A stretch of DNA of 64,000 nucleotides from Ascidiella aspersa (GCA_963924565.1 OZ004613.1:10788001-10852000); one strand, 5' to 3'; numbered from the stretch's first letter, positions 26,356 to 50,300 are shown. Numbers and translations are program-made. Notes: a model not told the origin generated them from the sequence alone.

Positions 26356-29300
26356 ATGGATGCAATAAATATTTCAAACTGGAATAACAAACAAGTTTTG
26401 GATTGGTTTAAAGGTAAGCTTAATCTTACAAATTACATTTTTTTATATTATAAAGTTCAGGGTTTCCTTAAATATGAAGGTCATCGAAAAAAATCAAATA
26501 TGGCTTTTTTTTTGCAGTGTATGGATGTAGGTAGTTAAAAGCTCAATTTTATGTTGAAATGGTTGCTTCACGTTGTCAGCCAATAACCTTATCTGAACTC
26601 ATTCTGGTGCACAACTGTATATCTCTTTAATTATTAAAGTCCAAAAGGGAAGCTTATTGCGCATTGGTATTAATGGGTTTTGTTGTAATTTAACTTCATT
26701 AAATTTCAATGAAGGCTTGTCTGCAGTGGGCTCTGTTGTCAAGCATTGGTTTTAATGTTGTAATTGATGTTACTTGTTTTTGTATTGTCTTTCTTGCTTA
26801 GATAGGATGGCATAAATAAACAAACAAACAAAAATTGGGATTTGACTTGAGTAATTCTCAGCTATTTGGGATTTTTAAAATTTGTATTGACAAAATTCAA
26901 GTTTAAAATTCAAGAAATAAAAAATCAATTTAGCTAATTTCTTGGTATTAACAAGCGAAACCATTTTCCCCGATAGACTTTTTAGGTACAACTTTCTAAA
27001 TAAGCGCCACAATCCTGTTGTAGGTTCTGAAATATTGGTGATAATTTTAATCCCTTTATTAAACCTAAGAGGTATATAATATAGTTAAATTTATTTTTAT
27101 CTTGGTTATTAAACTTTTTATTGACATAAACTTTGTTTAGGAAAAGTAATACATGCCTGGGATTAGTTTGTCTAATTAAGTTCATGATGACTTATGTATT
27201 GCTCTGTAAGTTACAAAAGTCCGTTGTACAAAATTGTGTTGATCACAGGGGCATTTCTTAAAAAAAACAAAAAACACAATTTTACTTCCAGAGTAAGAAA
27301 TTTAGTTTTTAGCTAAAATGCACAATGTTAGACCCCAGAGTACCCTGATCAAATATAGGCGGAACTGGCTGTGGTAGCCATTGTGAAACTGTTTATTTTG
27401 AGGTTTTACTTGAATTCATATAGGGTCCCATTTCTATCCACCTTTTCTCCCAAGTTTGTTAATTCACACCAAACAACGTTTTTAAAATCCATGCTTTTGC
27501 GAGTGGCACGTACGTTTGGCCGCAGCGAAACGTTTTGCCTCTCGCCATATGTTGTTTCGCACATGCCATTATGACGTCACATTCCAATGTGCGTCGATTT
27601 GCCGCATGAGTGCGCGCGGCTTTTCGGCTGTAGAGTCAGGCCGTTTTGGCCCTGAGAAGCCCAGCTCGGGTTACCGGTTACCCTCACGGGTTGTTGCATT
27701 TTGCCGCCTGCCTCGAAAAGCTAGCTGCGACGCTTTTGGCAGCTTTTTCAGTGGTTGGAGGAAACGTGTTTAATGCTTCAAGTTTCCATGTTTCGTGGAT
27801 ATGTTTATCTGCACCGCATGACGCTTTGAATTTGACCAGAGACTAGTATTCCGTTTCTAGTTTTTTTGCGTTGTGACGCTTGTATTAGGTCGTGCATACT
27901 TTCAGAAAAATATTGTCCGAATCAATACTGTGTAAAAACGTCGTTTTAAAATGAATATTTCCGTACCACATGGCACAGTAATATGCATAAATTAGTCAAA
28001 ATTTAGTAGAATTTATGTAACTCTTAAATTCATCTAATAGGCTAACACAGAAAATGCATTGCTGTCACCAGGACCTTACTGTAAATTCCGGTGCAGTTGA
28101 AAATTTACCACAAATTCGCTTTTCTCCTTTTTTGTACTTGTAATTGGCCCACGCAATATTCAGGTTTAGGCTTACGTCTACTACAGGGGTGGTCAACGCG
28201 GCTATTGTTTTAAGTTCATGCATAATTTATGCGGAAGACAATATTTCACCCTATAGACGCAAAATTATACGCATTTAAGCACCAAATATAGGTTCGTTCT
28301 TGCCAACCGTTAGATTTACCGTAAAGGTGCAATGGGACAGCAAAAAAACGCTTTATCAACAATGGCGCCAATATTTCTACTCGAGACCGCATTTTCTACT
28401 CGAGTTTTTCTACTCGAGACCGCAAGCCAAACAGGACAACCTGTCCCGCCGTTTGGTGCAAGAAATACGACGGAGCTGGCATAAAACAGCAGGCCTACTT
28501 CTGCGCTCCGTAATTGCTGTTTAGCGAGTGGGCGCAATATTGGGCCGCGCCTTTGGGATTGACCTACGGAGAACCTGGTGGAACTAATTATGACAGTCGA
28601 TCCTAATCTGGTCCTGCTTATGGTCACGCCGATCGCTAAAAGCCAAGCTGGTGCCTTGCCAAACTTTTAGACCCCGAATGTTTTTTTTGCATCTGACATA
28701 ATTGCGGTGTCCGTACGTGATGTTGATTCTGTCAGCATCCCCAAAACGTGTTAACACTGTAAGAAGAAGAATCTGTAGTCTTTAGCAAACGCGTTGCGTG
28801 GTTTTCTCTGTGGCATTTTGGAAGTGGCTTTAAACGACCCGAGAACTTTCGCAGCTGTACGAAAACCGCAAACGCGTTTCGGATCGCTGCCAAGTAATGC
28901 GTCGCTTTTTTTGCTGATTCGTTTCGCAAAGCTGTGGAGAGGGCAACTGCTAACTTCCTGGTGGCCAAATAGCCAAGAGGAATGTTGACAATAAGACAAG
29001 CTTTACTTTCTTTTTGTGCTAGAAATTGGTTCGAGTATTGACTTCTGAAACAGAATTTATGGGCCTTTTTTATTTTTGTAATAATTTTATTATTACTATG
29101 TAGATGTATTTTACTTTACTTTTACAAATTTATATAGAAAAATCCAACGTTTTTTTTTCAGTCGTACCATTTTTTCCTATTTTGAAGTGATAAAACTAGG
29201 ACTTGGTGCTTCTAAATAGGGATTCTTAAACTTGGGTCCGTTGACCCCTGTTGGGTACGTTGATTGGTTTTGGTGGTCCTTGAAGGGCATATGGAAATAT

Positions 29301-32300
29301 TTCTGTATAATTAAAAACTGGAATACATTTTTAACAGAAAAAATTAAAAGAAAAAAAAACACTTTAAAGCCTTTTTCTTAAAGTATTTATACTATCACTT
29401 TTAATTTGCGCATGTATTTTCTACTCTTTTAATAACGACATCTTTGCAAAATGTCATACCAACCCTGGTCCACACGAATCAACCGTTTTTAATGGTTCGA
29501 GTTAAAACAATTTTTAGTAACCCTTGTCTAAATCGACACCGAAAATAGGCGCAATTTAAAATTTAAAGTACCATCAAAGTTAGGCTGCAAGTGTAAATTA
29601 CGTCGTAGGTGGCCTGTTGCGAAGCCAATCTTGGTGATACAACAACAGCACATTAACAGCCACCGCAAAATGTGGCCTGCAGTGTCGTAATGTCATTTTG
29701 CGGTTATGTATTTTCATCACGCGTTTCGTACAACGAATTGCTATTCCCTGGTTGACAACTTTAGCGTTTTTGACGTCGTTAGATGGAAGCCTTGTATGAT
29801 AAGTACGCAGTGGTGGTGATTTGCGTTAATTTATGTTGACTTTCTGCTCGTAAATGAGGAAATTTTCCCGATAAATTATCGGCTTAACAAAAATAAATGG
29901 CATATCTCACCAGTCACCAGTAACGGAACTGACTTAGGATTACAGCCGTGTTTCTCAACACATGGGTATTTTTAGATCCCATTTTTTCGCCTGTTAAATT
30001 AGTTTGGTCGCCCACTGCAGTAGTTCACTTGGTTAGATTTGTAGAGATTTATTCTGAGCAAAATTAATCTAAAATTTAAGAAACGGCCCGAAGAAGTACG
30101 ACGAAGACGTGACTGATATAAATTAGAATCAAATCTAATTATTGCTGTGGTATTCTTATTTTTCCTTGAAATTTCAGCCTACAAAAAAGCTAGCTAAGTA
30201 AATTGGGTCGCCAAAGCGTCGCTGTTATTCTTACACTTAGTATTTGCGTCGCCGCTAAAAAAAGGTTGAGAAACACTGTTTTAATAAGGACACCGAAAAT
30301 TTAAAACCACCATCTCAAAGTTACTTGATACGTCATTTTACCCTATATTTAAAGGTTTGGCTTAACATTTTTTTTTGTGTAAATCAAAACAAATTTCGAG
30401 CTCTGCGCACCCGTCTCTTAGATAGGAAAATAGGTGACGCCTGTAAATTGTCCGCTCTTATACTGTCGTCATTTTCGCCTTGTATAAACATCGCCGACCG
30501 GCTCTGTCTCGTAGCTTCTGTTTTGATTGCGGCAACCTGCCGACGTTAAACTACTCGCTTACTATTTCCCTTCGCCGGTTTAACTGCTTCTTAAGTTCTG
30601 CGCTATATTAAGACTCGCTCGTGGTGTGTAGTTGTAAAAGCCTGGTTTTGGCGAATTCAGCGAACTGTTAAATTCCGAGATGTGTGATCTCTGGAGACTC
30701 GCAGCTTACCAAAGCCTTGCAAGCCAATTTTACCAAGAGATTCGCGTTAAAGAATTTCTTTTACAAGCAGTGATCATGATTTATGATAGTTTACACACGA
30801 ACTTTTTAAGGATGTCCACCTAATGGCTAATCGGTGATCCCAAACCAAGGTTTATCAATCTTCGACGCAATTTTTTTTGTTTGTTCCTCTACTTCCGTAT
30901 CAGTTCAAGTATATTTTACCCAAATAAGTAGCTAATTTGTTGTATATTGGTGATTCTGTAATCTCCGTGTAATGTAACGATGTCCAAAACTTAAAATTTT
31001 AATCCGATACCGTTACCCGATATTTTGGACAAAAAGTATCGCGATTCGATACTAAATGACGTCATTACTGTGCTGAAATCAGCAAAATAATGATGTTAAA
31101 ATGTTTAAAGGTATTTTTTTTCGGTTATTACGCCCAAATTTGCTTAAGCGGCAATAAATTTAGTTACCTCCTGTTGTTAACCTACTATGTAAGTCCTACT
31201 ATTAAGTCGCTGCGTTATATCATAGGATAAATTCTTGTATTATTTTGGTATCTGATCGGCACCGATACCATCATAGACCCTACGAAGGCTGAAACAAGAC
31301 TTGGTGTATCGGCTCCAATCCTAAATGATCCAACAACATTAATGCAATTTACATACAACTCGCTTTCAGAGGTCATATTTACTGGCGGCGTTCCACTCTC
31401 ATACGCGCCTCTCTATTTTCTTTATGCAAGGCACGAACGTCACGAGAAACGACCTCGAGTGATGCAAACTCATAGCTGTCGGATTGTCGTTGATCCGTCG
31501 CAAACTTGAACTTGACAACTTGCGCCGTTTGACCTCTTGCGACGTGAAGTGCGCTCGGATCGCTTGTGTCACGTGACCTGTATTGCTGTCAGTCCTTAGC
31601 TTTGACCGCGTCTGTTCCACTTGTAACTCTATACTTCAGAGTTGGGACCGCGTTACCGACGTTAAGTAAAATAAATTCTTATCGCGATTTAAGCGTTCTT
31701 GGTCGCATTTCAATCTGACTGCTTTTAGAAATGTGTACGAAACTTGCTGTTTCTGTTTTTCCCCTTTCTTTTTGCCAAATGAAATTGCCTAGTTGTTTAT
31801 TAGTTGACACCATCTAACTACTATCTAACTGTCAAGATACAAGTGTTAACCTTTATTTAGAGCACCTATGCCTTTTCATTAAATCTCTTAGGGAAGTTAT
31901 ACTTCCTGTTGCAAGGGCTGTTAAGCCCTGGCCCTTGGCATTTTAACGTATACTTATATTATGAAGAGTTACTGTATATTCCAGTAAACCTTTAGATGGG
32001 TTTCAAATGTGGTTACCGACATACTTTTGATTTGTTATTGTACCTAATTGGTTACTTTTGCCAAATATGAAAGTCACTTGGTTTGGTCACACAAGTAATT
32101 AGTAATAAAACAAAATATTTTTTGCTTTTCGAAACTACGGGGAATTTAATAAGACGGTGGAATGTTGACAAAGAGCACCGACCCGTCCCAGAATATATCC
32201 TGTTATACAAAAAAGCCCCTCACCATCGCATATTTTACACTGTAAACTGTGTCCCTCTTAAACCCACAGTTACAAGATCACGCCCCTCTCAAATGTTCGA

Positions 32301-35300
32301 CCCCGAAAATTCCCTTTAAGGCTTGTTGCCCGCCCAAGCACCCGTGACCCTGCTGTCTAAGCGGGTAACTGTCTGTGGGTGGATCGGAAGCGATAGCCGG
32401 GCCCAACGCCAGCACCCGGAGACATCATACCGATTTATCACGTCCCAATGGACACGTCGGTACCCCGGCATTCCTGGCAACGTAACGGTTTGCTTCGTCT
32501 TACAAACTGTTATAGATCAATTGTTTAGTTTGGGATGTTTTTAGTTGGTTTGTAGTGACCGCGATTTGGCACTCCGAGAATACACAGTAACGTTTTAGTG
32601 TAATTATGTCTGGGGTAAAGCTGCACATGTCAGATTACATGGAACAGGAAAACAGTTTAACTTTTTTGGAAATGCGATTTTTTTGCTGTGCGGTGCAAGT
32701 TGTTGATTTCTAAATTATTTGCGTTTTTAGTCATCCTTTAAGTTTAAATGTTGTATCAGTAATTAGGGATGTTCGACAGTTCGTAGACTATTATTCCGAA
32801 GCTTTGTATGTGTATTAACAACAGAATCTGGCCCTCCAACAGAACACATAGTGCCGACGATAAAAATTCTAAAATTTATTAATAAAAGCTTGAGAAGCGT
32901 ACCGCTTCGAACAAAAATCAGTCAGCAAAATCTAAAACTTTAATACAAATATACATTTCGCCATATAAATGGCATCATCAGTTTGTCTGTACAAATAAAT
33001 AGTAAAAAATTAAAATATTAAAATGTAAATGTAAAATAAATTAATAAAATACATCCAAGATGAACAAAGACAAAGACAAAGACAGTCTGCGTATAAACCC
33101 CAACCACTAAAAACAAAAGCAAAAGGAGCATGCGATACGTGTAGCGGCCGCAGAAAGCCACCGATAAAAACACGGCCCTGAGGGAAGCGGTATGAGAAAC
33201 CACAGTTTGACAAGAAAACCACAGTTTGACAAGAAAACGGATATGGCTCACATTCCGAAAATGGAACGGCACAACGCACAACGAAAACACAAATCCGCAA
33301 AAATATATATAAAAAAAATTATATATAAAAGTCTACCGAATTTGGGGTAATATCATTTTTTGAATGTTAATTGAGGCTTTTGTAAGTTTGAGCCATTTAG
33401 CCTCACATTCATCTAGCTTGCTGGTGTCTGGCTCTTCAACGAAAATGACCGTAAAACATTCGGCAATATGCGGATGTTTCTTTAACTTCTCGCCACGGTA
33501 GGTTGCGTAGTGGTGAAGCAGCGCTGCGTTGTCGTATGTTATTGCTGGGTTAAATGTATTCCAGGTCGCTCGGTGTGCGTTCCACCTAACAGAAAACCTG
33601 TTCTTGGTTTGACCGACGTATAGGGCAGAGCAGATGTTACACGTTGCCACGTGAATTCCGTGGTTTCTACAATTAAGGCTTTGCCGGAGCGCTATGGTCT
33701 TACCTGCAGCCCTGAGTTTACTCGATTCACCAACCATCCCTTTCCCATGGTGTCCCCCATGGTGACCGCAGAGTGCGCATTTGCCGCACGGCGTTGACAA
33801 ACCGACTGCATTGCCAAAGGTGTGCGCAAGTTGTCGGTAGTTAGTAAGAAGGTTACCGAGTGTATGAGGCCTTTTGTATACTATTTTAACTCGTGGTTGA
33901 AGCGCCTTTTCTTTGTTTGAGTGCCTGAGTAGATGAGCGAATGGAGTAGCCCATGCGACAACACGGTCTTTCGTCTTTTCTTTAGTGTGTCGGAGTCTCT
34001 CGGTCCACGATTTAGCCTCATTAAAGTTGTAATCCGTGAGGCCAGCAGGAAAACAGGACTTCCTGCATTTTATCTTCAGTTGCTCCAGACTTCGGTGGTA
34101 GTCCTTATCGGATTCATTAAGCCTCCTGAGGCGGCTTGCTTCACCCAACACAATAGATTTGTAAATATGTAATGGATGGTAAGAGGAACCATGCAAAATA
34201 TTTTTTTTTGCTGTGATCTTAACGTTGTCCCGAGTTGTGAATCCTAGTGAAGCCGTCTTAGAGTGAGCGTGAAGCACATCGAGAAATTCAACGTCGTATT
34301 TAGGGTAATCCGAACAAAAAACCCGAAATGTTACTTGCAGTCCCTCGTTGGAGAATGCTGACAAAAGCGCAGATCTAATTCTTTGCGTGGTATTGACCCC
34401 GATGGATATGAAAATGATGTCATCCATAAAACGCTAAAAGATTTGAGCCGTGCCTAACGTGTCTGCGATCGATCCAACGATGAAGTGCATGGCAATGTTG
34501 GCTATTGAGACGGAATGATTGTCGCCTGTTATAATACCCTCTTTCTGACGATAAAAACTTCCGTCATACTGGACAATAACATTGTCCATCGTGAACAGTG
34601 TAAAATCCAGGAGACATTTACAGCCCACAGATTTTTTACAAATGACGTCATTACTGTGACTAATAACTAATTATTAAATAAGTAAGAAATACTTTTTTTC
34701 ATAGCATAGAAAACCTTGTGTTAATTGGGTAAATAACTAAATCATTTTTGTAAAGGTCCGACATTAATACAGTATTGGTGGTATGATCTGTCAATAGAAA
34801 TATTTTTTCATTAGGCAAAAACCGCTATATGTCATTGTGTAACGAGTGATTTCACTAAATATTGAAACTTGAACCTTTTGCTACGAAACCGAAGTTCGTT
34901 CTGTCCGCAACTACAGCTTTGGCCCATTACCCGGTATGCAAAAAATGTTTTTTTTCGTAAGCACGAATTGAAAAGAAAGATGGAACACAGAAAACAATTA
35001 CCAAGCAATGCGTTCACGTTCTATTTAAAGCGCTTGTTTTGGAATTTCGATGGGAAAGAATGTGGTTGTTTACAGTCTATCGACATGAGGTAGTGTAGGG
35101 TTACCCAATAATTAGTTGTCCAGCCTTCCGTTGATTGACGTCCCGTCTCCACAGCCCAGGTTATATCATGCATACGACTAGACTGTGAGTTTCCATAAGG
35201 CTGAATTTACTTTGTTGTTGGAAATGAGGGTTTGGAGTTTCACAAATCTTTTTAAAGCACGTTTAAAGCGTTGAAAATCAATAAACGTTACTAGCTATAC

Positions 35301-38300
35301 TTATTTAGTATTGCAGTATGTTAGCACAAATATTCTATTTATCGGGAAACGTTTCACCTCATTGTTCTAATGTGTATCTCGTATTGCAAAAACGGATTTT
35401 TTCTTCGTTTAAGGTGGGCGGTTCTCACATTGTATGCTGGAGAGATTCTTAAGCATTTGATGATTTTTTTCATTTTAAAAACCAACGTATTACAAATAGC
35501 CAGGCATGTAATTAACCTACAATTAAATACTTATAAGGTTAAGGTATCTACCCATCCAATCAATTAAAAGTACATAGGCCAGTCATGTTATTGTAAAAAG
35601 TGTGCGTGTTTTCATTTCGTAGAAAATTCGGATTAAATTAATTGTTTTGACTCGAAAATTAAATTTTTGGTAGTAGCTGGCCAAAAACTATTGCAAAAGT
35701 AAAAAAAAAGTTTGATAAAAGTGTGCTGCAATGTAAAAAAAAATTAAGCACTTGCCATTTTTTAGGGCCGCGCTCTACAAAATTAAGCACTTGCCAAGCG
35801 AAACGAAAAATTCGGCCAATTGGGCCCGAAAAAGCTATAATTATAGTGATAGCTTCTGTCGCACACTAATGCGTTTTTTGGCCGTGAATAAATGCACTTT
35901 CGCTGTTTCGCGCCGACGTTCGACGATAGAGTGTAATTGCCACCATCGGCTGACGAAAAATGGCCAACTGAAGCCGGTCTGGCAGCTGTTAAATTATTTC
36001 GCTCAGAAATGATTTTCTTGTCAAATCGATAGATCGTAACGAAAGTTGACACCCTTTCGTTTGCGGATTTTTTTTGAAATTTGTGCGCCATAGGGGTATA
36101 GTAAATGGGTTCCTGAAACGAGTTCATTAGGCCAGGAATTTAAAACCTGAGGGTCAACAAGAAATTTATATGCGCAAAACCAGTTTTTAGGATTGTGGTA
36201 AATCGACTGTGTTTTACCAAAAAATGTTACTGTGTTTGTTTTAATTAATCATTTTTTTAAATTGTGATATCCACCCAGTAGTGGAAACGTCCCACGCATT
36301 ATATTTAACAAATAATACTGAAGCAGCCAACAAGAAATTAAACTGCTTCGCACTCTGAGACTTGTAGAAAACTCTGGGCGCTGGTCTATAATCCTACCAC
36401 ATTGATTTTAAGACTAACGAAACAAGGTGTTAATGTTGAAATTGCAAGGAAGGTATAAATATGTCAAAAATGTAAATTAATACTTGACCCACCCCAACCC
36501 GAACCCAAACTCTCACCTTAAATATTGTTAGCAATATAAACCCCCGAACAAAAATGTGATAGGATTCTAGACGAGCGCCAAACGCTGTTCGAAGTTGGGT
36601 TAGACTCGAATTTATCGGATTCGATTCCAAACTGTTTGCACAGTAATCCAAGGCTTGCCATTTGTTTGATTTATATAGTGCGCACGAAAAATTCACGGCA
36701 GTTCATTCCAGTCAATGATTAAAAGACACACTTTCTTATCGGCGAAGATCTAAAGGCAGAAAGCTTAGTTGAAAGACTGGAAAAACGTTTGTTTCAATTT
36801 ATTAAACGAAAATCACCCAAATTTCTGTTACTTACTAATTTAACCTTTTGTGACAATACTCCTGTGCAAAATAACTTTGAATCATCTCCAACTGTGCAAT
36901 TTTATTCCGTTGGTTCAGTTGTGTATTGCTTTTAAATCCACTTTAAGAGTTTTTTTTAAAAGGTGTTTTTATTAAAAGGTGTTTTGAAAGGTTGTTCTAA
37001 AGCAGGCCTGCGCAACATACGGATAAGGTTGACCTTTTCTGCCGGTAATTTTATTTTTTCCCGCTTTGTATCTTGTATTGAACGATATTACGTTGCAAAT
37101 AATGTGCTGTTGTGGCACTTGTTTGTACCACTTAAAGTTTTGCAGGCGCGTGGTAAAGATCAAACTCAAAACGCATAAACTAAAAACCCATGTCTGGAAC
37201 TTAAAAATAGGGCTAGCACAATATTCGTAATAGCATTTCGACGACGCCGATGTTGCATGTTGCGTGAGAATCACGTTCTGTCCTATCTCCCATACACTAG
37301 AAGCAAAGTCAATATTTCGCTATCACCTTCTTATGTCTTAGACCAGAGTTACATCCTTGTACCCCGGTGCGTTAACCCTTGGAATCCGGATACCAACTCC
37401 TCTCTACGAGAATGAGTGCTATTGATTTTACCGTTTAAACTCATTAAATGCGCTCAGTAATTGATGATGTCGTTGGTGTGTCCTAATTATATGCATCTTC
37501 TGAGACATTAACAAACGTTAAATTTTTTTTCTGATAATATGCAGTTATAGAATGGTATAACTGCTGTCGTAGAATGGTATAACTGCTGTCATAGAATGGT
37601 ATAACTGCTGACGCAGATAAGGTGTTTTTTGGCTACAGATCCTTTCTATCACCAAAGAGCATTTTCTCTTATTTGCATTAAGACATATTGATTTTTGTAT
37701 GTGGTTCAAGGTTTAACATATATAGGCCTACTTGTTAGTGCCTTACTGTTTGTCGGTTAGCGCCACGTAATTACGTATATTCTAGATAGAAACTAAACTC
37801 CGTCTGTTGCTTTTCTCTAATACAATATAATGTTTCCCAAAGAGATGGTATATATACCCGGGGAAGTTAGTCATGAAAAAGGATGTTTTGAAAACGTTTT
37901 TCAACTTTGGCCTAAGCGTAACACTTATTTGAGTAAACCAAATCCGGGTCGGATTTTATTCGCGTTATGCGGCTTTTTATGCACTTTTCTTCTGCTATGG
38001 CAGTACCTCAAACACTTTAAAGTTTTTAGAAGCTCGAAAAATTTAGGTCGAATAAAACTGTCCTTGTTACTTTTCGAAGCGGTACTACTAGCACACAACG
38101 GATAAATCGGGGGCAAACTGGCAGGTACTAACTCATGCAAACATGATACGGCTGGATTAATTTGGCCTGCAGTTAAAAGCAAAAAAGGGTCGCACTTGGC
38201 CAGTTCGTAAACGATTTACAAAAAAAGCTGTAGAAAATTGGGATAAATTCGAGATATGACTCACCCGGGATAATTAACACAGCGCGTTTTTCGCCACTTC

Positions 38301-41300
38301 CAGATTTTAAGCGATTTACAAAAAAAAATCTGTTAAATATTCGGATAAAATCGAGATATGACTAAGAAACGCGTTTTTCGCCCCTTGACCAGATTTTAAG
38401 CGATTTACAAAAAAAAACTGTGAAAAATTCGGATAAATTCGAGATATGACTCACCCGGGATCGTTAACACAACCAACGCGTTTTTCACTAGGTCTTGACG
38501 AGAGTCTTCAGCGCTACTACCCACACTTCGAACGTGCCGAGGTGGTCGGGGAACAACTGCTTTCTCTCACTCACGACGACCTTCTCAGCTTGCAGATCCA
38601 GCTGGTCGGGCATCAAGAACTCATCTTGGACGCCGTAGCCCTTCTGCAACAGCTGGTAAAGTTGTATATAGTTTTTCAGCTTTGGCGACGTGTTCGTCTT
38701 CGATTGTATGTCCGGACAGAATTCTCTTTTAAAGCGTAGCGGTAAACTGTTATTTATGATCATAGCCACCCGAGCAAATTAATAAAAAAAAATGATTTTT
38801 TTACAAAAAAGGCACCATTACTGCCTTCTGGTAATTTTGCTGATTAGTTAACTGTAGTATGTAACGTTACAATAAATGAGGTTGAAACAACTCATTAACT
38901 GAGCAACAAGGTTGAAAAAGTTCTTTTTAATTTTTGGAACTTTGATTACACAAAAATTGATTCAAGCAAAAAATAAATAAATTTGAATCCTAAAGAATTT
39001 TCAATATCTCTCGGCCCTTTTGAAAAAAAAAATGACGCCCAAAAGCGCCGCGGTACCCCGGTTAAGAGTCACTGGCATAATGTGTCGTATCTCATCGTAA
39101 CGCATCCGAACGTAACACATCATTTCATGTTGTATAACAATTCATCGCAATGTATCGCAACGTTCTTTTAATGCATCGAAAATTATTGCAATGCATCATG
39201 ATTTGTCGAAACACATTGTTACCTATCTGACACTTATCGTAACGCATCAAAATACATCGCAATGAATTGTATCTTATCGTTAGCCTTCGTAACCTATTGT
39301 AAAACTTCCTTGCGTAGGGTAACGCATCGTAACGTGATTTCAAGCATCGTGGTGTACTATAACGTAAACTATAATTGATTTCTTGCGCACTGTAACTTTT
39401 CGTACCTACTGTTAGTCTAAAATGCCATTCCATTGGTTAAAACCTTGTCTCTATTTGTCGAGCGAATCCTCGCAGTGCACGGTAATCGAGATTAACAGTA
39501 ACCGTTATGTATCTTAACGTATCGTAAAACTTCGTTACGTGTGGTAAGGCATCGCAACGCTATTCTTAGCACCCTAGTGTACTTTAACGTGGATAATACT
39601 GGATTTGAAACGCACTGTTGCTTATCGTAGTTACTGTGAATTACCCTAACGATTGTGAATAACCGTAACTGAACTTGTAGCAACGCACAAAGTCTAGCAA
39701 TCGGCCGTTCTCAAACATCTTTGCACAGTGCGCCATGTGTCTATACTAATAATACAGCAATACATTAGGTAGAAAAATGTGCGAGAAAAAAAATGAGGGC
39801 ATTTTCAGAATCAGCGCCCAAAACACTTCAAGAATCAATCTTTCACATTTTCGTTTAAAATTTGCTGTTGAACAGTGCAATCGGCCATTCTCAAACATCT
39901 TTGCGTCTTTCCTCCACCAGGACTATGGCCTCGACACCGAGACACTGCAGTCGCGTGCGCTTTGCCTCAAGTGCAGATGTCGCAGCCTCCGATCCAGTAT
40001 CGCCACTAGGCGGCGAGAGGCCGAGGAGTACGGCTACGAAGCGGGGATTTCCCTACAGAGCGGCGCCTCCAACCAGATGCTCCACCTAGCGGCAGATGTG
40101 CTGGTCGAGGGCAAGCAACTTGTCTTGTGGTTGGACAGGTGAGTTTGTTAATGACGACTTTGGAGCATAATGGTTGGAGGTCGTAGTAAGACGTACTTAA
40201 TAAGAATATCAAAGCCCATACAGAAGTAGGTATCATTTTGAACGTTTCGAAATGAATAAAAAGTTATTTGAAACGTTCAAACTGCAACCTACTTCTGTAT
40301 GGGCTTTGATATTCTTATTACGTATTAATGACAACTGATCAGTTGTTTGGAGACTTGGTAGCACACATATAGTCTTATGTGGCTTGCTAGTTTTCTCTAT
40401 TCGTGATTATACGTTTACATATATAAGGGCTCCCCAGTGTCTTTCGGCCTGTGGCCGGTTAAACCTTCTGGAACTTTTCGCAACTCTTCACGTTTGACAG
40501 AAATATGCAAAAACGATTTTCGTTGTATGATTTTCTGCCCGCATTTGTTGATGTAATGTGCAACTCTCAATTTAGAATTGTGTTTTATTATATTTTCACA
40601 TTTAAATGTCGGAAAGAAATTATATATGTATAGTTCGGGAACCACCTGTTTACAGTTTGGCATGCAAAGAAAGAGTTCAGTAGCGAACAGTGGGCTGTAG
40701 GCATGTATTACGGTTCGATATCTCTGTACCGTGGGTATTTGGATAAACGCAGCCTTAGCGTTACCACGTAGCTTATATTTTTGTATCGCGGGAAAACCAC
40801 GAGTATACTGCCGTAGGAATTTTAATTTTCTTCCAAGCATTTTCTTCTCCGTTGCCCGGAAAGCTTAGTTTTGATCACTTTGTAATACAGGAAGCAATAC
40901 TGAGGCTCAATGGTATTTTGTGCTTTCGTTGTTTTATAAACCCCTGCCTCGTCCGGCGATTTGTAATTGGTGTCGTGATATCTAGGGATTTAGTTTTCGA
41001 ACAGGCATATTTAAAATTGCAGTTCCCTGTTGCGAGACCACTCTGCAATGGATCTATATCAGTGATTCTCAACCGCGGCTCTCAGAGCCGCATGCGGCTC
41101 TCAACTGTACATTTTGCGGCTCTCACTAACGGAGTGAAAAATTAGTTAGCAGTAGCAGAATTGCAACAAAGGAAGTAAGAGAAACCAAAAGTGAATGAAT
41201 TTGATCTGCAAGGTTCCCGAGTACGAAGTACTAATCTTACCGGGTTACTTCCGTCCGGCTCTTTAAAATAATTTTGTGGTTTGTTACGTCACAATATATT

Positions 41301-44300
41301 TAGTCCTGATCGACAAGCTATGGCAATAGGCAAAGCTATGGCAAACATTGTTAATTAGTTAGCCTAGGCTAGCGTAATGTATATTTGTTGTTTTCTTGTT
41401 GCTATTTTAATGTTTTTCTAATTATATGCCTACTGTTGTTTTTATGCGGCTCCTTGCAAACCTTAGGTTTGAAATGCGGCTCTGGCTCTAAAAAAGGTTG
41501 AGTATCACTGATCTATATAAATGTAAAATTGTATATAATTTAAAAAATAAACCTACTGAAATCAATACACCAGACCTGCGAGCAGATAAGACCATATTTT
41601 CGTTGTATTTCTCTATTTAAATTCTCAATTTATTCAAATTGTAAGCGTATTGCAGTTTTGCCGTTTAAAATTTTATCGCGGACCGGACTACAAATTTGGT
41701 TGCCACACAAAAACAACACAACAGGCCACTATAAAATGTTCGCCATTGCTAAAAGGCTTAATCCAGTTGTCAGGAACGGCATTAAATTGCGGACGAACGC
41801 GAGGCGTCGCTCCTCAATTTAGACATCGATGTAGCCGGACGTGATCAGAGGTCATTTCTGTTCCCGCTATCGCGTAATAGCTTATCGATTGTCGTTAAAG
41901 CGCAATGATAGAGAATCGATGATGAGTCGCGGGGGAGCTCGTTGTTCTATCCTTACATGTGCTTGGCTGTTAAACAATTCGTTCGTCAGTGTGTTTTTGT
42001 GTAAAAAAATGTTCCGCTATACGTAACACGTACCCTAAGTTTTTCTTGGAGTTGACCAAAACCTTAGTAAGTAAACACCGCAATGATACAGACTTTCCTT
42101 CCGGTGCAACCTTATATCAGCTGTTTAGTAAAAAATATATAGTAACTACCCTTTTAAACACGTTAGGACAAGGTCAAACTTTTTTTTTTAACTTGTAACT
42201 TTTATAAATACTGGTTCGCGTAGACCAGTGTCGGCATGGCAAAGTTAAGAGATGACGTTTCAAAATAAGTACAAATAGGCTTAGGAAGCCTACTGCTTCA
42301 AAAAAAGTCATACCATTGTTATTATACACAAATATTTAAATTAGGTCTTTATGTAGCCAAAAGTGGCATACCTAACGAATTACAGATACTTAATATTCTT
42401 TGTGGTTATTCGCTCAATTTCTTACAAAGGATTTTTCTAATGTACTGTGGAGATTATAGTGTGTGGTAAAATTCGCCACTGTAGGGGACGTATGAACTCT
42501 ATCGCATATTTTAACCGCCTGTCTATTTCGCCAGAGCCCCTTTCAGCGCGAAGAAAGATTTCAAGGAACTGCGTCACATGATGGTCAAGCTCTGCTACGA
42601 ACTGAGTGTAACGATGCAACAGGTAGGCACACAATCACCAGGATTTATTTAAACTGCGGTCACAAACCTTTGTTTTTGTCGTTTTGGCGCCCATTCTTTT
42701 GCCTTTAAAAGCACCATTGTATTTTTCTTCACGAAGAGGTAACTTGCGTATATTTGCCGTTGTTTTGTATTCGATAGGGACAACCTCATATTGATATGTT
42801 ACCATCTGTTTTATAAATGGAAAAATTAAATTTGATATTGCAAGTTGGAAAGGGAAGCCTGTATTAACCAAATGTTGATTGAACGTAGTTATCCTTTTCA
42901 TATGCTCTTGTTTTATTCTACTGGTTTCAATGGCTTGGTCCTGCAATTACTAATTTTTTATTATAAATTGACCAGTCGAAATTTACTTGTTTTGCCACGA
43001 AATTTACTTTGTTTTGCCACCTTTTTAATTCCCTTTAAAATAACGCAAAGTAGCGAAAAACCGAGGCGGGATCCTGCATGAAATAACAGCTGTCTTTTTA
43101 AATCCGATTCCGACGACCTTTAGCTGACTTGAATGACCTGCAGTAAGCCTTGCGTTGCACATCTCGAATTACCCCATACGACTGCTCGTTTCAGCTTACT
43201 AGAAACATGCGATATATTGTGTGTTTTTCCATGCGCAAACCTCGAAAGTACCTCGTGCATTTTGCAACGTTCGTTCCTCTCAAATTACCTCAGGAATCTC
43301 ATAAAAATTTAAAAGACCATTTAAGCCAGTGGTTCTTAACCTTTTTCCTTGCTGCGCCCCTTTTAAATCACCAACCAATTCTCGCACACCCTTCTAAAAT
43401 TGCTTAAAATAACAAAAACATTGTAATTTTATTTTTATACAACTAACTGATAACACAGCATCACAATACTAAAACGAGAGGTAGTTTTACATTTCCGAGG
43501 AAATAAATAAAAACAGTAATGCATTATTTTATTCTTTTTTGGGTGGGACGAAGGGGAGAGTGGTTGAGAAATCCAGCCAAACGGTGACTATACGGGTCCC
43601 TATATGTTTGCGAATTCGCGTTGTAATCTGCTGTTTTTGTTTTTCGGCGCAGAGCGTCTTCGCCTGTGTGATTGAGGACGCCACCCTTTCAATTTGCGAC
43701 GAGATTGAAAACCTGGCCGACGGGTGAGTGCCCTTGCTGTTTTTAGTTTTTCATCTGCTTTCCCAGCGAACGCTGCCGAGCCTTTACTGTCTCGTTTTGC
43801 TCGACGGCTTTCAGCTTTAATTACACGGCCATAAAACACCGAGACCGGGCAATCGATAAAAAACCTGGCCTGTGCCTGCTTTTCCTGCTACTATTCTTCG
43901 ACGGGTGATTTCGTTGCTTGCTTCTATGCTGGCGATCGTTCAATTATGTTCTTTCACCGTTTGGTCGTTTTTTGAATCATTGTAAAAACGGAAAAGTCAT
44001 GTGTGTCGTATATTTGTTGTTCATTTTCTAATTGTTTTCCCTCAAAAAATAGAATAAGAAAAATGCCATAAGCTATATGCATGTGAAACAATTTTGCGTT
44101 AGCCAAAACGTTAGACTACCTTAACAAAAACAAACCGAAATGACACTTCCCTAAACAAAAAAGAGCCCAATTCCTCGACAAAAGGTCCTAGCTTGCTTTT
44201 TTATTGGCAATTTCGGCAAAATAGCGTTTGACAGGCTATTTTGCTTGTGCTATTACACATAGATTTGCTGTTTAAGATTTTTTCCTTTTTTGGGTGCCTT

Positions 44301-47300
44301 ATTTGACAGACTCCTTTCGACAGGTTTATTTTCCGAAATGCTTTAAACGAAAAGTTAAAATTATCGAATTTTTAAAAACTAAAATTCAATTTAAATCAAA
44401 TCAGGTGTAGTTACTTAATTGGTTATTTTCTGGAAAAAACAACAACAACAAAAATACTTCGCATAACGCAGTGTTTTTAATAAAATCGAAAATTAGTTGC
44501 AAACTAAAGTAAAATGAAACAAAAATTAGATATAAACTGAAAATCGAGCATTGGATTATTTTGAAAGAACAGATCTCAAATATGGGGAAATTGCTTTAAT
44601 TCGTCTTATTAAACAACTATAAATACCGATTTTTTAATACCCTCATTAACCCAAAATTCAAATTTGCATCCGTCATTGTTGCGTCACACAGTATCGTCCA
44701 ATCAAACGAGCCGCTCACGATACAGCCGGTCACCTTGGAGATCCTGACACTGAGAGACGTCGACCCGAAGGAAGGCCTCGGCCTCTTCATCAAGGTCACC
44801 TTCGAAGGTCACCACGTGGTCACCGGCACCCGTTCCGGTTCGGTGGCGTCCAAGGCGCGCCGTATTACGTCAGGAGACGAGGTCGTGGCCGTGAACGGCA
44901 AGGCTGTGGTAAGGTTGTGTTCAATTATTTATCTTGAGCCTTGTTTTCTTTTTTTGCTAGCGCCATGAGCAAAATGTTAAGCGGTTTTTGATTGTCACTG
45001 TGTGTCTCGAGAAACTAGCTTGACTAGCAAAAAAAAAACATTGTAAGGTAATATTATGTATCAATAGAATTGAAAATCATTGGTATCAGTGCGTTTATTC
45101 CGTCGTGAGAACCCAGTGTTGTTCTGACTCAAGTCAATTACTTTTCTTAAGTGCGCATTTTTAGTCTACAACTTAACATCAGTGACGTGAGAACCCAGTG
45201 TTGTTCTGACTCAAGTCAATTACTTTTCTTAAGTGCGCATTTTTAGTCTACAACTTAACATCAGTGAGCTTAATTCACTGTTTTTAATGACTTGACTTAA
45301 GTCTTTTGGCAATATGACTTGATTTGACTTAAGTCTTTGTGACAATGTGTTGAAATGAAAAGAAGTGTTTTCTTTAGGCCTTTTTAAATAATTGGGGAAT
45401 GTATCTCAATTTTTGAACGTAAAGCAATTTTCTTGCTGTTTATTGCGTTTATATATGTTATTTTTTACTTAGTTATTGCTCATAGTCCGACGATTTCACC
45501 AGTTTTAATTGTTTAGGATTTCAGTTTTAAAACAAGGACTTGACTTGAAGTTGACTTGCTCTTATTATGACTTGACTTGGGCAACCAATGACTTGGACTG
45601 GGACACTTTGCGCTTTTTGAAAATACTCGATTTTAACCTTTTTTTGAAAAAAGGTCGATTTTGATTATTTTGCGAATGAATAGACTGGGACTTCAAGTCA
45701 TTTAAAAAAAATGTTAGCAGCACTATATAAACCACTTCTCTATAGTTTTTGTGCGAAAAAAAAACTACGACCCTAAACGCTTGTGTGTTTCTATTCTAAT
45801 CTCTGTGTCAAGTAAAAAAAGTTCATTAGAGCGACCACGCTTGCACGCCTGCCAATCGTGACATGAGATTCTATTTCTCGTCGAAAATGTATCTCCCGTG
45901 TAGGCGTGAAACCCGTAAACCAATCACGTGTCGTAAAAACGACATTAAATATCGATTTTTTTCTCGCTTTCTTATACGCAGCATGTAAACGAAACAGCTG
46001 CCGGGTAAAGCCCGCTGAAGGTTTTTTAATATTTAAACTTCGATTATTTTGGTTTTGCTGGGATTAAGTATCTCGTTGATCTGTGCAGCGCGCGCACCCC
46101 ATATAGATTTCACCGTCGCTTTCTTATTGTGCCATTAATATTGAATGCAGCCTTGTTCGGATGATAAAGTGTATTGCTGCCAGTTGAGTCCTGTACGCCA
46201 ACTGGAAACGTGTTTTCACGAGACATAAGGCCACGCTTTATGCAGAGAACTGCCGAAGCCGATCGCTGGGTATCCCTGCAATGCAATAATCTAGTGACCT
46301 TAAATAAACGACGACTGAAGTATACTGGCGAATCTCTCATACTTCAACTTAGGAATGGAAATCAGTATAATTATATTTGTTGCATATCTCCACAAATTCC
46401 GACCAATACAGAGTAGGACCAGACTTGCACATTAATATTAAATTGTGAGACTTTTTACGTATTACGCAAATTGTTATTTTAAGAATTGCGTTTGTACGGT
46501 ACTTTTTTGTGTGGTTCACATACTATCAATCAGTGGTTCCCGACTAGCACCCTGGGGTTTATTTTCTTCTGCTCCATTTTCTTATGCTTAATTTCTTATG
46601 CTGATCTTCGTGTGCGATTTCCAAATTAAATTTTATTTGATTGTGTTCTTCCATTTCACTTGGAGTGACATTACAGCACCGAACGAAATACTAGTGGGGT
46701 GTCGCGTTCTATTCACTATTCCTATGGTATGCCGTACGCTATAAAATGTATAAGACCACTGCTTAAAGTAATTGCAAAATGCTAGCATTTCCCCGCTTAA
46801 GCACCGTTCATCCTGATCATTAAACTTCCTCCTACTTAACTCCATGTGTCCTTCCCAGATCGGCTGGTCCCTCGGCTCCCTGGTGTCCTCTCTCAAGGAG
46901 CACCCCCATCAGGTGAGCCTCCTCATGAAGAAGAGGCCGCAGAACGCGTCCAGCTCCTCCTCCAACCTCCTTGCTCTCATGCAAAGACAGGAGCAGAATG
47001 ATAGGTCAGTGCCGTGCTTTAAGTTGAAACGTATGCGAGGACAATACTGCATTTTGTGATATACTACTAGTTCATTGTTTCCTATTTTAAAGCATATAAG
47101 AAAACGTTTTCCATTGTGCTTTTGCTTTTTAGTTGTGGAAGGTGATAAAACTAAAAGTTAAGTTGTCTGATTAAGCGTTGGGATATACTTAAGTTTATCG
47201 GCTTAATTCGGGTAAAAGACTTGCATACGTTTTTAGGTATATGATAAAGTTTGGATTATTTCAAAATATTCTACACAGTCTGTTTTGTCCAAAATTACCC

Positions 47301-50300
47301 AGTGCTTTAAATGGTTTGGTGTTAGTACCAACAAAAGTTAATAGACACTAGAGTTATCGCAGTTCATTTCCGTCCGTCACGACAAACACCTCTCTAGAGA
47401 TTTTAATATTCCCTCTCCGTATGAAATTTAAAATCCAAATCAATATTCCCCGATAGAGCTATAAACTATATAAAACCTTAACCAAGACTGGCGTTTCGCC
47501 GTCGATTACCAATATCCTTGTCGCCAAACACTTTTTGGAAAAATCGTTCTAGACATGTTTTGCTTATCTAGTTCTGCTCAATACTGCGAAGGCCGCTTAA
47601 AACAACCCGAGTCCGACATGCATTATCATGCAACTCACAAACCGTAGCTTAAAAACCACAAACCGTAGCTTAAATTCAAACTATTCTACCCATATGCTAC
47701 TCCACCTTTACGATTAAGTTTTGCGAGTTACGGCTCCGACTCCGCGGTCCTGGTTTGCTCCACCGTCCACCCAAAGCTCCATGTTTGAGCACAACTGACG
47801 AAAAATCTCCCAATTGCGTCGCACTCATCAATCGTTTGCCGGCGAAAAGCCAACAAAATCAGCTGCACTTTTAAATCGTTGTAAAAAACATGAAAATCTT
47901 TGAAGAGAGTATTCCTTTATCCCACCCCGTTTACAAGGGAACACACAGTAAGACCTACAAGACAATTTTAGACGTTGTTACGGCTATTAGGCATTAGTCC
48001 TATTTTGGTCTTATATTCCGAACTGTTCGATGTTGATGTTCTTCATATTTCTGTCTTATGACTGGAGTCTGCTTACAAGCCAGCGGTGAGAATCTAACAA
48101 ATAATGTTGTCCGCCAAAGCCCTTACAAGTAGAGACTTTTCACAAACCGACTATCAAAGAGGGGTGGTTGTTTTGTCGTTTTCACATTCGGGAAGCACAC
48201 TCGTCAGCGACAACCCCCTCTCCCCCTCCCCCCAAAAAAATGTCCAAATACGCGCCAGAATCTGGGTTCTTTGCAAGGCCGACCGACCGCCTACGCATCG
48301 CCGCTGATGAATAATTGATGTTTTGAAATCTCGCGAGTCGCCCGACAGTCAATTCCGGTCCCGGTCTTATCGCGCGTCAGGCCGTAATGGCTCCTGGCCC
48401 GTTCCGACGCAGCCGCAGGTCAGACGCCCCCCCCAAAACCCCTGTTTTTCGGCAGTGATGTTTAGCTGCAGATTCATACGCTGGTTCATTTTGTTTTTGG
48501 CCTCGTTTTTAAGGACACTTGGCCTGTTTTTGCCTTTCCGGTTGTTGTTCAAAGGTGTTATAATTATGTACAAGTGTACAAAGGACAGTTTTTTTATTAA
48601 TGTCTGATTGGGGTGATAAATGCCCAGGTTGAGTTTTTGGGTGTTTTTTCCTAAATGACCAAATTGTTTTAAATCGTTCACCTTGAAAATTTAAATCAAC
48701 CCACGAAGTAACAAACTCATACGACAAACGTTTCTATACTTAAAAAAATTTCCAGGCTGAATTTCCAAGTTGCCACAAACAACTGTATACCCACCCAGGT
48801 GTGCCAATCCGGGATTATTTATAAGACTTGTGCTTATTTTGAAGTACATTGTCTCAAAAAAGACGAATGTGGTTAGTTTTAAGTTGTGTGCTTAGTTTGT
48901 CCCACTTATATATTTCTAATGATTTATTTTCGACCTATTAATTCTATTTACAAATAGGCTATTAGCCCAACTTTGACAGCTCTTAAATGTTTTAAACTAA
49001 GAATTTCGCTTCAGCTTGTAATAAATATTTACAGTTGGTTAAGCAACAACTCAATATAGAGCAGCGTGCCTATCTTTTCGCCCTGGCAGATGGTAACCCC
49101 GTGTATACCCCACAAACGCGTGGGCCGCCTTGCGCAACGCGAGTAAGCCGGCACGTAAAACAACCCGGGCCTGTCCGACCAGTGTCGTGCATATATTTTG
49201 CGTTTCGCGGTGTGTACACGGCTTGCTAATGGACTTTTTTCGCATTTGCCCCGCCTAGTCCCCTGGGCCTTCTGCTCACTCGGGAGAAAATCACGTTTTC
49301 AGTCCTGAAAAGCTCGTAGTCCCGACCAGTTCCCTACAATTCGCTGCTTATCTGCACGTAGATGCGGTCCGGGACTACGAATTAGAACGCGAAATCCACA
49401 CCAGTTGGAGCGGGGTTTGGTTGAAACAACAATGTTATTTTTTGGTCTAATTAGCAACGCTTTTTGCCTAGAGTTCGTTTTATTGGCCTTTTCGCCTTAT
49501 GTAGTAAATTACGAAATCAATTCCTCCCAAAACAATGTTTTTTACATTGAAATTAAAAAATGTGCTGTTTTTTTTTAAAGAGAACACTTTTGGCCGATAG
49601 AATGTACGTCATTGTCCTTTTTCCTTGTTTTACATTTATGGAAAATTAAGACCTTAATACGAATTGTATCGCTGAATCTGCTCCTTTGTATACCGACAAA
49701 AGTAGTGACACTTATGCCGACAACTTGTTTTTTTTCATTGCCTTATTCTTGCTTTACAAATTTTGTATTTTGTTAAATCAAGGAATGGACATTTTGTTTT
49801 ATTTGTGGATTGTAATAGGCTGCACAAATTTCGTAGTCAAAATTCTTTATTTTAAATATCGCGTTTTTCAGTTAGTGTTCGTAAAGCAATATTTAAAATT
49901 TTGCTTTACTGAAAAAACTGAAAAGGGAGAACACACAATAAGACCTATAGAAGGCACAAGTACCTAAAGCAAAAAAATATATATAAAACCATAGTATTAA
50001 GACCAACGACATAATAAAGCCAAATACACAGTAATATCCACGACGGAATAAGAACGTATCGCATGAATAAGACCTAAATTCGTGGGAATAAGGCTAAATG
50101 GCCAAAATAACCCCTGAAACTGAAGGGAGAGTATGGGGCAACTGGGGTTCATGGGTCTGGCTGGCATCGGTCGTTTTGGTGTCAACGTTTGGGCTTCCTA
50201 GTTTGAATGGCGTCGTTTGGGCGCCGCTGTTTTGCCACCGGATTATTCCGTTTTAGACGGTACTACGACCAATATAGTTATTACTTTTTTTTAGTCTTGT

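Follow-up and report, generated by a model that had tools for sequence, protein, structure and literature searches.

The window analysed here, a 64,000-nucleotide stretch of Ascidiella aspersa DNA, carries on its minus strand a minimal hammerhead motif of the type found in PLE pseudo-LTRs. We are largely confident that this copy is a truncated relic with a palindrome mutation predicted to weaken the dimer, and that RNA of its family is likely to be spliced leader (SL) trans-spliced at an acceptor situated before stem I and likely to be reverse-transcribed uncut. The original prediction had recognised the hammerhead and its element. It proved incomplete, as both the conserved acceptor abutting stem I and the SL-joined copies were absent from it.

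The type I motif occupies 32945..32986 (-) and was delimited by sequence, by a descriptor tested on shuffles and by comparison of sister families. Stems, core and loop are present as first described: stem I 5' strand ACAAA (32986-32982) is followed by the core CUGAUGA (32981-32975), stem II GCCAU (32973-32969) with its UUAU loop and AUGGC (32964-32960), GAA (32959-32957), palindrome AUGUAU (32956-32951), A17 at 32950 and stem I 3' strand UUUGU (32949-32945). An unpaired extra U at 32974, between CUGAUGA and stem II, has to be added to this description. The motif contains the complete minimal hammerhead core CUGANGA ... GAAA ... UH. Additional base separating positions 9 and 10.1 (U32974) and G10.1-C11.1 pair (G32973-C32960) are both present, likewise in eight families, and the accessible part of PMC4209133 names this base among the hallmarks of PLE minimal hammerheads. 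The cut is predicted between 32950 and 32949, after the triplet AUA, at the position proposed before (about 32950). Strict minimal-hammerhead descriptor gave a single match in the window, identical with 32945..32986, while shuffled windows gave 0.01 matches on average and at least one match in 1 of 100 shuffles. Rfam returned no hammerhead at E<=10 in the searched interval 30000-38000. Stability of the 42-mer as monomer is not unusual (z -1.0), and in monomer folds the predicted probability of stem I is low (0.00-0.36). By sequence, the window motif is a standard PLE minimal hammerhead; its hallmarks and location fit the dimer type suggested originally.

Two features had been regarded as less common than usual. 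U after GAAA simply belongs to the palindrome. At position 17, A or U is usual: all families compared have one of them there, never C. A17 and U17 triplets are slow according to the available part of PMC1636495, where AUA, though naturally occurring, was the slowest of four triplets tested in a viroid hammerhead.

The stem III palindrome of the window copy differs from that of its family by one private base at 32953 (-), U here and C in the family, as judged from exact-match counts, copies and RNA reads. Exact matches in the genome number 117 for AUGCAU and 1, the window itself, for AUGUAU. Among 94 de-duplicated copies spanning the motif, 88 have AUGCAU, three AUACAU, one AGGCAU and one AUGUAU, and in one the palindrome is deleted. 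The palindrome at positions 15.2-16.2 / loop 3 is therefore present in the family and degraded in the window copy. Predicted energy of the self-duplex is -4.7 kcal/mol for AUGCAU vs +0.6 kcal/mol for AUGUAU, so that the mutation likely abolishes the predicted dimer helix and weakens the ribozyme. The motif had been called intact-looking; all its parts are indeed there, but the G-U centre of its palindrome is found in this copy only. The G-U pairs noted in stem III are hence a one-copy mutation and not the family form.

RNA evidence comes from one Ascidiella aspersa run, of which 6% was read; it derives from an individual other than that of the genome and consists mostly of passively transcribed fragments. 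All 83 reads covering 32953 carry the family base and none the window base. Over the motif, 80 of 83 reads have one orientation and 67 share one foreign flank at 32879, suggesting that they likely originate from a single copy elsewhere, carried within a host transcript. At this low coverage, the run displayed neither start or end pile-ups over the window motif nor CNK splice junctions over the window. Reads with a leader join, with 5' end at the leader or with an end at the cut were not seen among the matches listed for the window and a family-C locus, where coverage was also low.

The hammerhead belongs to a PLE copy (34630 to 32799, -) that shares 92.6% identity with family copy L062. The 5'-truncated ORF remnant (33333..34630, -), determined from frame and family alignment, comprises the end of RT, thumb, CX2CxxC linker and GIY-YIG endonuclease, the last of these also found as a domain in the window frame. 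It corresponds to residues 387-816 of the L062 frame (92.8%) and contains an in-frame stop at 34436-34434. As stated originally, the motif is located downstream of the PLE ORF, ~350 nt past the stop of the GIY-YIG-ending frame. The rest of the 3' UTR / pseudo-LTR (33021..33332, -), delimited by alignment to family copies, would be lost as outron of the tandem unit that follows. DNA upstream of 34630, past the 5' end of the copy, is single-copy; hence there is no inverted arm. No convincing target-site duplication flanks the copy (best 6 nt). A tandem partner in cis is lacking, as the copy stands alone, is 5'-truncated and is interrupted by a stop.

L062 contains an 816-aa open frame with RVT_1 (E 3e-5, below the curated cut-off) and GIY-YIG (E 7e-6). 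This single ORF, RT followed by GIY-YIG, is the arrangement of PLEs with C-terminal endonuclease (EN+). At other loci the family is arranged as 3422-bp tandem units and as inverted pairs, and its copies end at two termini; this agrees with the partial tandems, the inversion of 5'-truncated copies and the optional tail of C-terminal EN+ PLEs. In tandem units the frame continues and the cut site lies 100 nt before ATG of the next unit. The linker CGKCALC corresponds to CX2-5CxxC before the endonuclease, by description a Neptune/Nematis feature. Further likenesses to Neptune/Nematis-type PLEs, as given in the accessible part of PMC8557442, are RT then GIY-YIG, DKG-type motif, CCHH-type residues, partial tandems, inverted copies and canonical hammerhead. 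Selenoprotein/Naiad and Hydra-clade readings were dropped, because the endonuclease occupies the C-terminus and is preceded by a CX2CxxC linker. Among named proteins, uncharacterised entries of Phallusia mammillata come closest (46-57% identity). Two loci of unusual structure were encountered. A long family copy is flanked by a 130-bp direct repeat, 96% identical (L062:2106-2235 and 5452-5581), far exceeding the usual target-site duplication, and L063-L064 (G000 C2 ~30.63 Mb) consist of near-identical 3422-bp tandem units with the same frameshift in each and an inverted arm at the end.

The located part of the host CNK gene extends over 26356..44968 (+), as determined by Pfam with a putative first exon. 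The SAM exon lies at ~38500-38640 (+), within the frame 38437-38736, the CRIC exon at ~39920-40140 and the PDZ exon at ~44700-44910 (+). A W..V..W motif with a strong donor at ~26356-26412 (+) is presumably the first coding exon. Judged from sequence and this putative exon, the element likely resides in the ~12-kb first coding intron of CNK; with the element on the minus and CNK on the plus strand, the antisense position noted at the outset was corroborated. CNK introns also contain very high-copy short repeats (read-depth peaks), a 22-bp minisatellite and 90-100-bp tandem repeats (window 40159-40323, 41100-41500, 31000-31110, 37540-37617, 38200-38471).

We then compared the hammerhead in the window family (family A) and in sister families, whose proteins are 44-62% identical. 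In 33 of 51 sister-family loci it is found 238-381 nt past the ORF; several of the remaining 18 carry a GUAA core variant. Stem I pairs differ by family (ACAAA/UUUGU, AGAUA/UAUCU, AGGAA/UUCCU, AGAGA/UCUCU), as do stem II (GCC/GGC vs GCU/AGC) and the palindrome (AUGCAU vs AUAUAU). Covariation, suggested as a check, is thus seen between families, where stems and palindrome change in pairs, but family A is too young to inform. The same holds for conservation: core and stems are kept between families, while in family A conservation of the motif scarcely exceeds that of its flank (differences in core 7/1029, stem I 5/939, flank 22/1880) because the family is young. Selection on the hammerhead between families indicates that it probably has some function. 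A role thus probably exists, though not at the time when leader-joined templates were copied.

GUAA replaces GAAA in family F (L069, L071, L092, L102) and family G (L057, L091). Both families keep stems, palindrome and acceptor; either the core varies naturally or the ribozyme was lost and the acceptor kept. The window itself contains at 6644-6678 (+) a degenerate copy, with broken stems, of a second, very abundant minimal-hammerhead family (1448 first-look candidates). The core of this family has an extra A, stem II is GCAC/GUGC, the palindrome AGCU and, in other copies, stem I GAC/GUC. CUGANGA...GAAA matches at 48180-48207 (-), 55131-55163 (-) and 38483-38511 (-) fail the strict descriptor; that at 55131-55163 possibly derives by decay from a hammerhead of another family.

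Directly before the window motif, a pyrimidine-rich tract ends with AG (32988-32987). This feature (32987..33020, -), identified from sequence, eight families and seven leader-joined copies, is a likely trans-splice acceptor that is unused in the window copy. The exon after AG would begin at 32986, where stem I starts. AG preceded by a pyrimidine-rich tract occurs 3-13 nt before the core in all eight families compared. Seven of 118 sampled family-A copies begin right after this AG with one of two leaders, both foreign to the UTR of the element.

Leader A, ATTCTATTTGAATAAG, is 16 nt long and identical to the spliced leader of Ciona (PMC1488885 Table 1 and the available part of PMC7986045). Leader B, ATTCATTCGAATTAAG, is a variant seen in the Ascidiella aspersa genome, where it is commoner than leader A. 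There are 673 matches of leader A, with a 584-bp tandem unit, and 2860 of leader B, 2275 of them donor-bearing, with a 429-bp tandem unit; both units have a GTAAG donor. SL gene arrays are situated at G000 C3 ~5.22-5.28 Mb (L253) and C7 ~14.77-14.83 Mb (L266). Both leaders are thus encoded elsewhere by donor-bearing SL RNA genes, as is expected of SL trans-splicing, and joins to the same PLE acceptors were observed for each. For Ciona, a single SL is described in the accessible parts of PMC1488885 and PMC7986045.

A pattern of leader end plus core was found at 496 genomic places in several sister families, the 16-nt leader or its 3' part sitting 3-5 nt before the core; reversed-pattern control gave 0. 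As the pattern itself demands the join, this count alone cannot show precision. A second check was therefore based on the first 60 loci among the leader matches listed, chosen regardless of downstream sequence. Of these, 34 match PLE-anchored loci and 26 do not; five of the 34 were removed for their non-PLE flank. At 25 of the remaining 29 PLE-mapped loci the leader is joined exactly at AG of the parent, and the four others are offset in gapped or divergent alignments. Core offset of exact joins is 3, 5 or 13 nt, depending on the family. Leaders placed at an AG acceptor after a pyrimidine tract are the arrangement expected of SL trans-splicing, here in DNA retrocopies. The trans-splice join is thus precise in DNA copies and, to judge from these sequences, likely takes place in RNA.

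At 30 joined loci examined, 15 leaders keep all 16 nt, the others are 5'-shortened to 8-15 nt, and upstream flanks differ. None of these loci contains a stop-free frame >155 aa within 1.5 kb. Direct repeats of at least 8 nt flank 8 of 37 joined loci (control 1), and 5 of the 37 have clean 11-13-nt target-site duplications. Family copy L148, for example, consists of duplication, leader A, hammerhead, tail and duplication. Leader-joined copies are short, and all retain sequence across the cut site. The template of these stubs was the sense strand. Long copies are different. In 20 long ORF-bearing regions, 24 hammerheads were detected, each with its acceptor, and no leader-joined full-length copy was found there; the detection pattern missed one leader-joined stub in L268, ~4 kb from the ORF. 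No clean cis-spliced copy occurs among the copies inspected.

Similar joins were seen in metagenome contigs: 24 of 82 leader-A matches are followed after 8-9 nt by a hammerhead that is complete and belongs to an unrelated family. The palindrome is AUCGAU in 20 of the 24, and 22 flanks are distinct. No unspliced parent of this family is present in the metagenome set, and its acceptor is thus unseen there. The contigs are presumably host DNA of another SL-bearing animal. In Ascidiella, leaders are also joined to repeats without PLE match (L208, L215, L232, L234, L245, L248, L249, L251, L252; L197, L223, L231, L235; L225-L230), including one series spaced by ~10.7 kb that has a decayed hammerhead-like stretch; such repeats may be other SL-trans-spliced mobile RNAs. 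We found no support for activation of the ribozyme by the leader through a longer stem I. The register gains 1-4 pairs in families A-C, and predicted stem I probability with leader rises clearly only in L148 (0.01 to about 0.35), not in L142, L214 and L203.

Further, we examined where copies end relative to the cut site in a sample of 118 family copies, distinct by flank and enriched for short copies. Two 3' termini are preferred. The first (32873..32883, -) is located ~67-77 nt past the cut site beside AAGCTT and is a putative reverse-transcription start. It is followed by a ~80-nt tail (32799..32872, -) that includes the start codon of the next unit (32849) and ends at the second preferred terminus, also AAGCTT, a putative second start. 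Accordingly, 46 of 118 copies end at +60 to +80 and 57 at +140 to +160 past the cut, seven run on in tandem and eight end elsewhere. The 5' ends of ordinary truncated copies are spread from -117 to +18. Copies starting at the cut site were rejected as a class: none of the 118 begins exactly there, only one does so within 5 nt (nearest -3), and in 98 of 99 matches of the downstream flank the base before it is still A17.

Tandem units place acceptor, hammerhead and 5' UTR about 100 nt before the next ATG. In the reading that we prefer, the spliceosome would replace the upstream UTR by the 16-nt leader at AG, yielding a capped monomer mRNA in the manner of SL-resolved operons. Reverse transcription would start at either internal site, about 70 or 150 nt past the cut, as suggested by copy ends and by the anole PLE. 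On trans-spliced RNA the enzyme would reach the cap after about 120-200 nt and leave a short insert composed of leader, hammerhead and tail. On unspliced read-through RNA it would continue into UTR and ORF, producing long acceptor-keeping copies such as that of the window. The hammerhead would be slow or conditional, with dimer or an element protein needed, and would not normally define the ends of inserted copies.

The original model, in which efficient dimer cleavage resolves tandem transcripts and trans-splicing is a side reaction, appears doubtful as the main account, but can be partly true beside the preferred one. Core, stems and palindrome are kept across families at 44-62% protein identity, implying selection, and dimer cleavage, though low, is reported for the Schistosoma minimal hammerhead in the accessible part of PMC4209133. 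Cut RNA might moreover escape reverse transcription, so that DNA copies would under-report cutting. Nevertheless, no sampled copy starts at the cut and all leader-joined copies span it. Position 17 is never C, two families have GUAA for GAAA, and the dimer helix is predicted to be lost in the window copy.

It is improbable that the leader is added at the level of cDNA, by a template switch of reverse transcriptase from PLE RNA to SL RNA or SL-capped mRNA. PLE copies often display switches in the form of inverted arms, leader and acceptor both end with AG, which offers 2 nt of microhomology, and the join was unseen among the RNA matches listed (one run, 6% read). However, the joins mapped above fall almost all exactly at AG, at a family-specific distance from the core, whereas ordinary truncations are scattered, and pyrimidine tract with YAG is kept in 8/8 families. 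A switch onto SL-capped mRNA should also often leave a host exon between leader and element, and none was seen.

SL genes are very abundant in this genome, and some retroelements target SL genes. It is nonetheless highly improbable that the elements inserted as DNA directly behind the leader exon of SL RNA genes or pseudogenes. Upstream flanks resemble neither one another nor the SL gene unit, leaders are 5'-shortened to varying degrees, inserts are not followed by an SL intron and target-site duplications are found outside the leader; inserts of the L148 type already contradict such insertion. Co-option of the window ribozyme to regulate CNK, to which its place within a CNK intron might point, is scarcely credible for a motif that is antisense, single and privately weakened, with its base in none of the 83 RNA reads (of a different individual).

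Trans-splicing before an uncut hammerhead, which we favour, can be compared with known systems. Minimal hammerheads in metazoan PLE pseudo-LTRs are described in PMC4209133; the Ascidiella clade differs by A/U at position 17 throughout and by a trans-spliced leader at the stem I acceptor, absent from the accessible part of that description. As in Penelope of D. virilis (available parts of PMC4209133 and PMC2377424), the acceptor is located at the 5' end of helix I, spliced and unspliced RNAs differ in hammerhead context and long genomic copies are unspliced. In D. virilis, however, the acceptor serves a 75-bp cis intron with its own donor, whereas in Ascidiella the upstream partner would be the host's SL RNA, and the record of spliced forms consists of hundreds of short DNA copies. 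In anole Poseidon PAc, according to the accessible part of PMC11167929, two internal RT starts near the ORF start define a tail, uncut RNA is the template, the hammerhead needs protein and no reads occur at the cut site. Ascidiella PLE resembles it in two putative internal RT starts, tail and a likely uncut template. The tail is ~80 nt long vs 30-40 nt in PAc, and the hammerhead lies ~100 nt before ATG, whereas it overlaps ATG in PAc.

Leader A, donor-bearing multicopy SL genes and AG acceptor are shared with ascidian SL trans-splicing and operons as covered by the available parts of PMC1488885 and PMC7986045. Unlike in Ciona operons, the target is a tandem transcript of a retrotransposon, and Ascidiella has a second, more abundant leader. 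A preprint on animal retrozymes (10.64898/2026.07.22.740005) deals with hammerhead-bearing non-autonomous PLE derivatives, and its accessible part does not mention SL. Among the titles and abstract openings searched, no report of SL trans-splicing of PLE RNA was found. The hammerhead is a further case of a known class, and the SL join may be new.

The flagged hammerhead alone is ordinary; interest lies in its link with trans-splicing and in the second SL gene family. As far as the available parts of PMC8557442, PMC3846280 and PMC11167929 tell, capping of tandem transcripts, hammerhead role, intron survival and template strand are open questions of the PLE field. Leader-joined copies represent a DNA record of their template, a processed sense-strand RNA with its full 5' end and an uncut hammerhead, and the strand recorded in stubs bears on the sense-vs-antisense question raised in the accessible part of PMC3846280. 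With somewhat better than even confidence, we propose that PLEs of SL animals have adapted their conserved 5'-UTR intron acceptor to trans-splicing. The spliceosome, not the ribozyme, would then cut the tandem transcript into capped, translatable monomers; internal reverse transcription on such mRNA would make only short stubs, and unspliced read-through RNA alone would make long copies. If true, this would explain at once the retention of acceptor and intron in PLEs, the abundant short hammerhead stubs and the dispersed "SL pseudogenes" in tunicate genomes.
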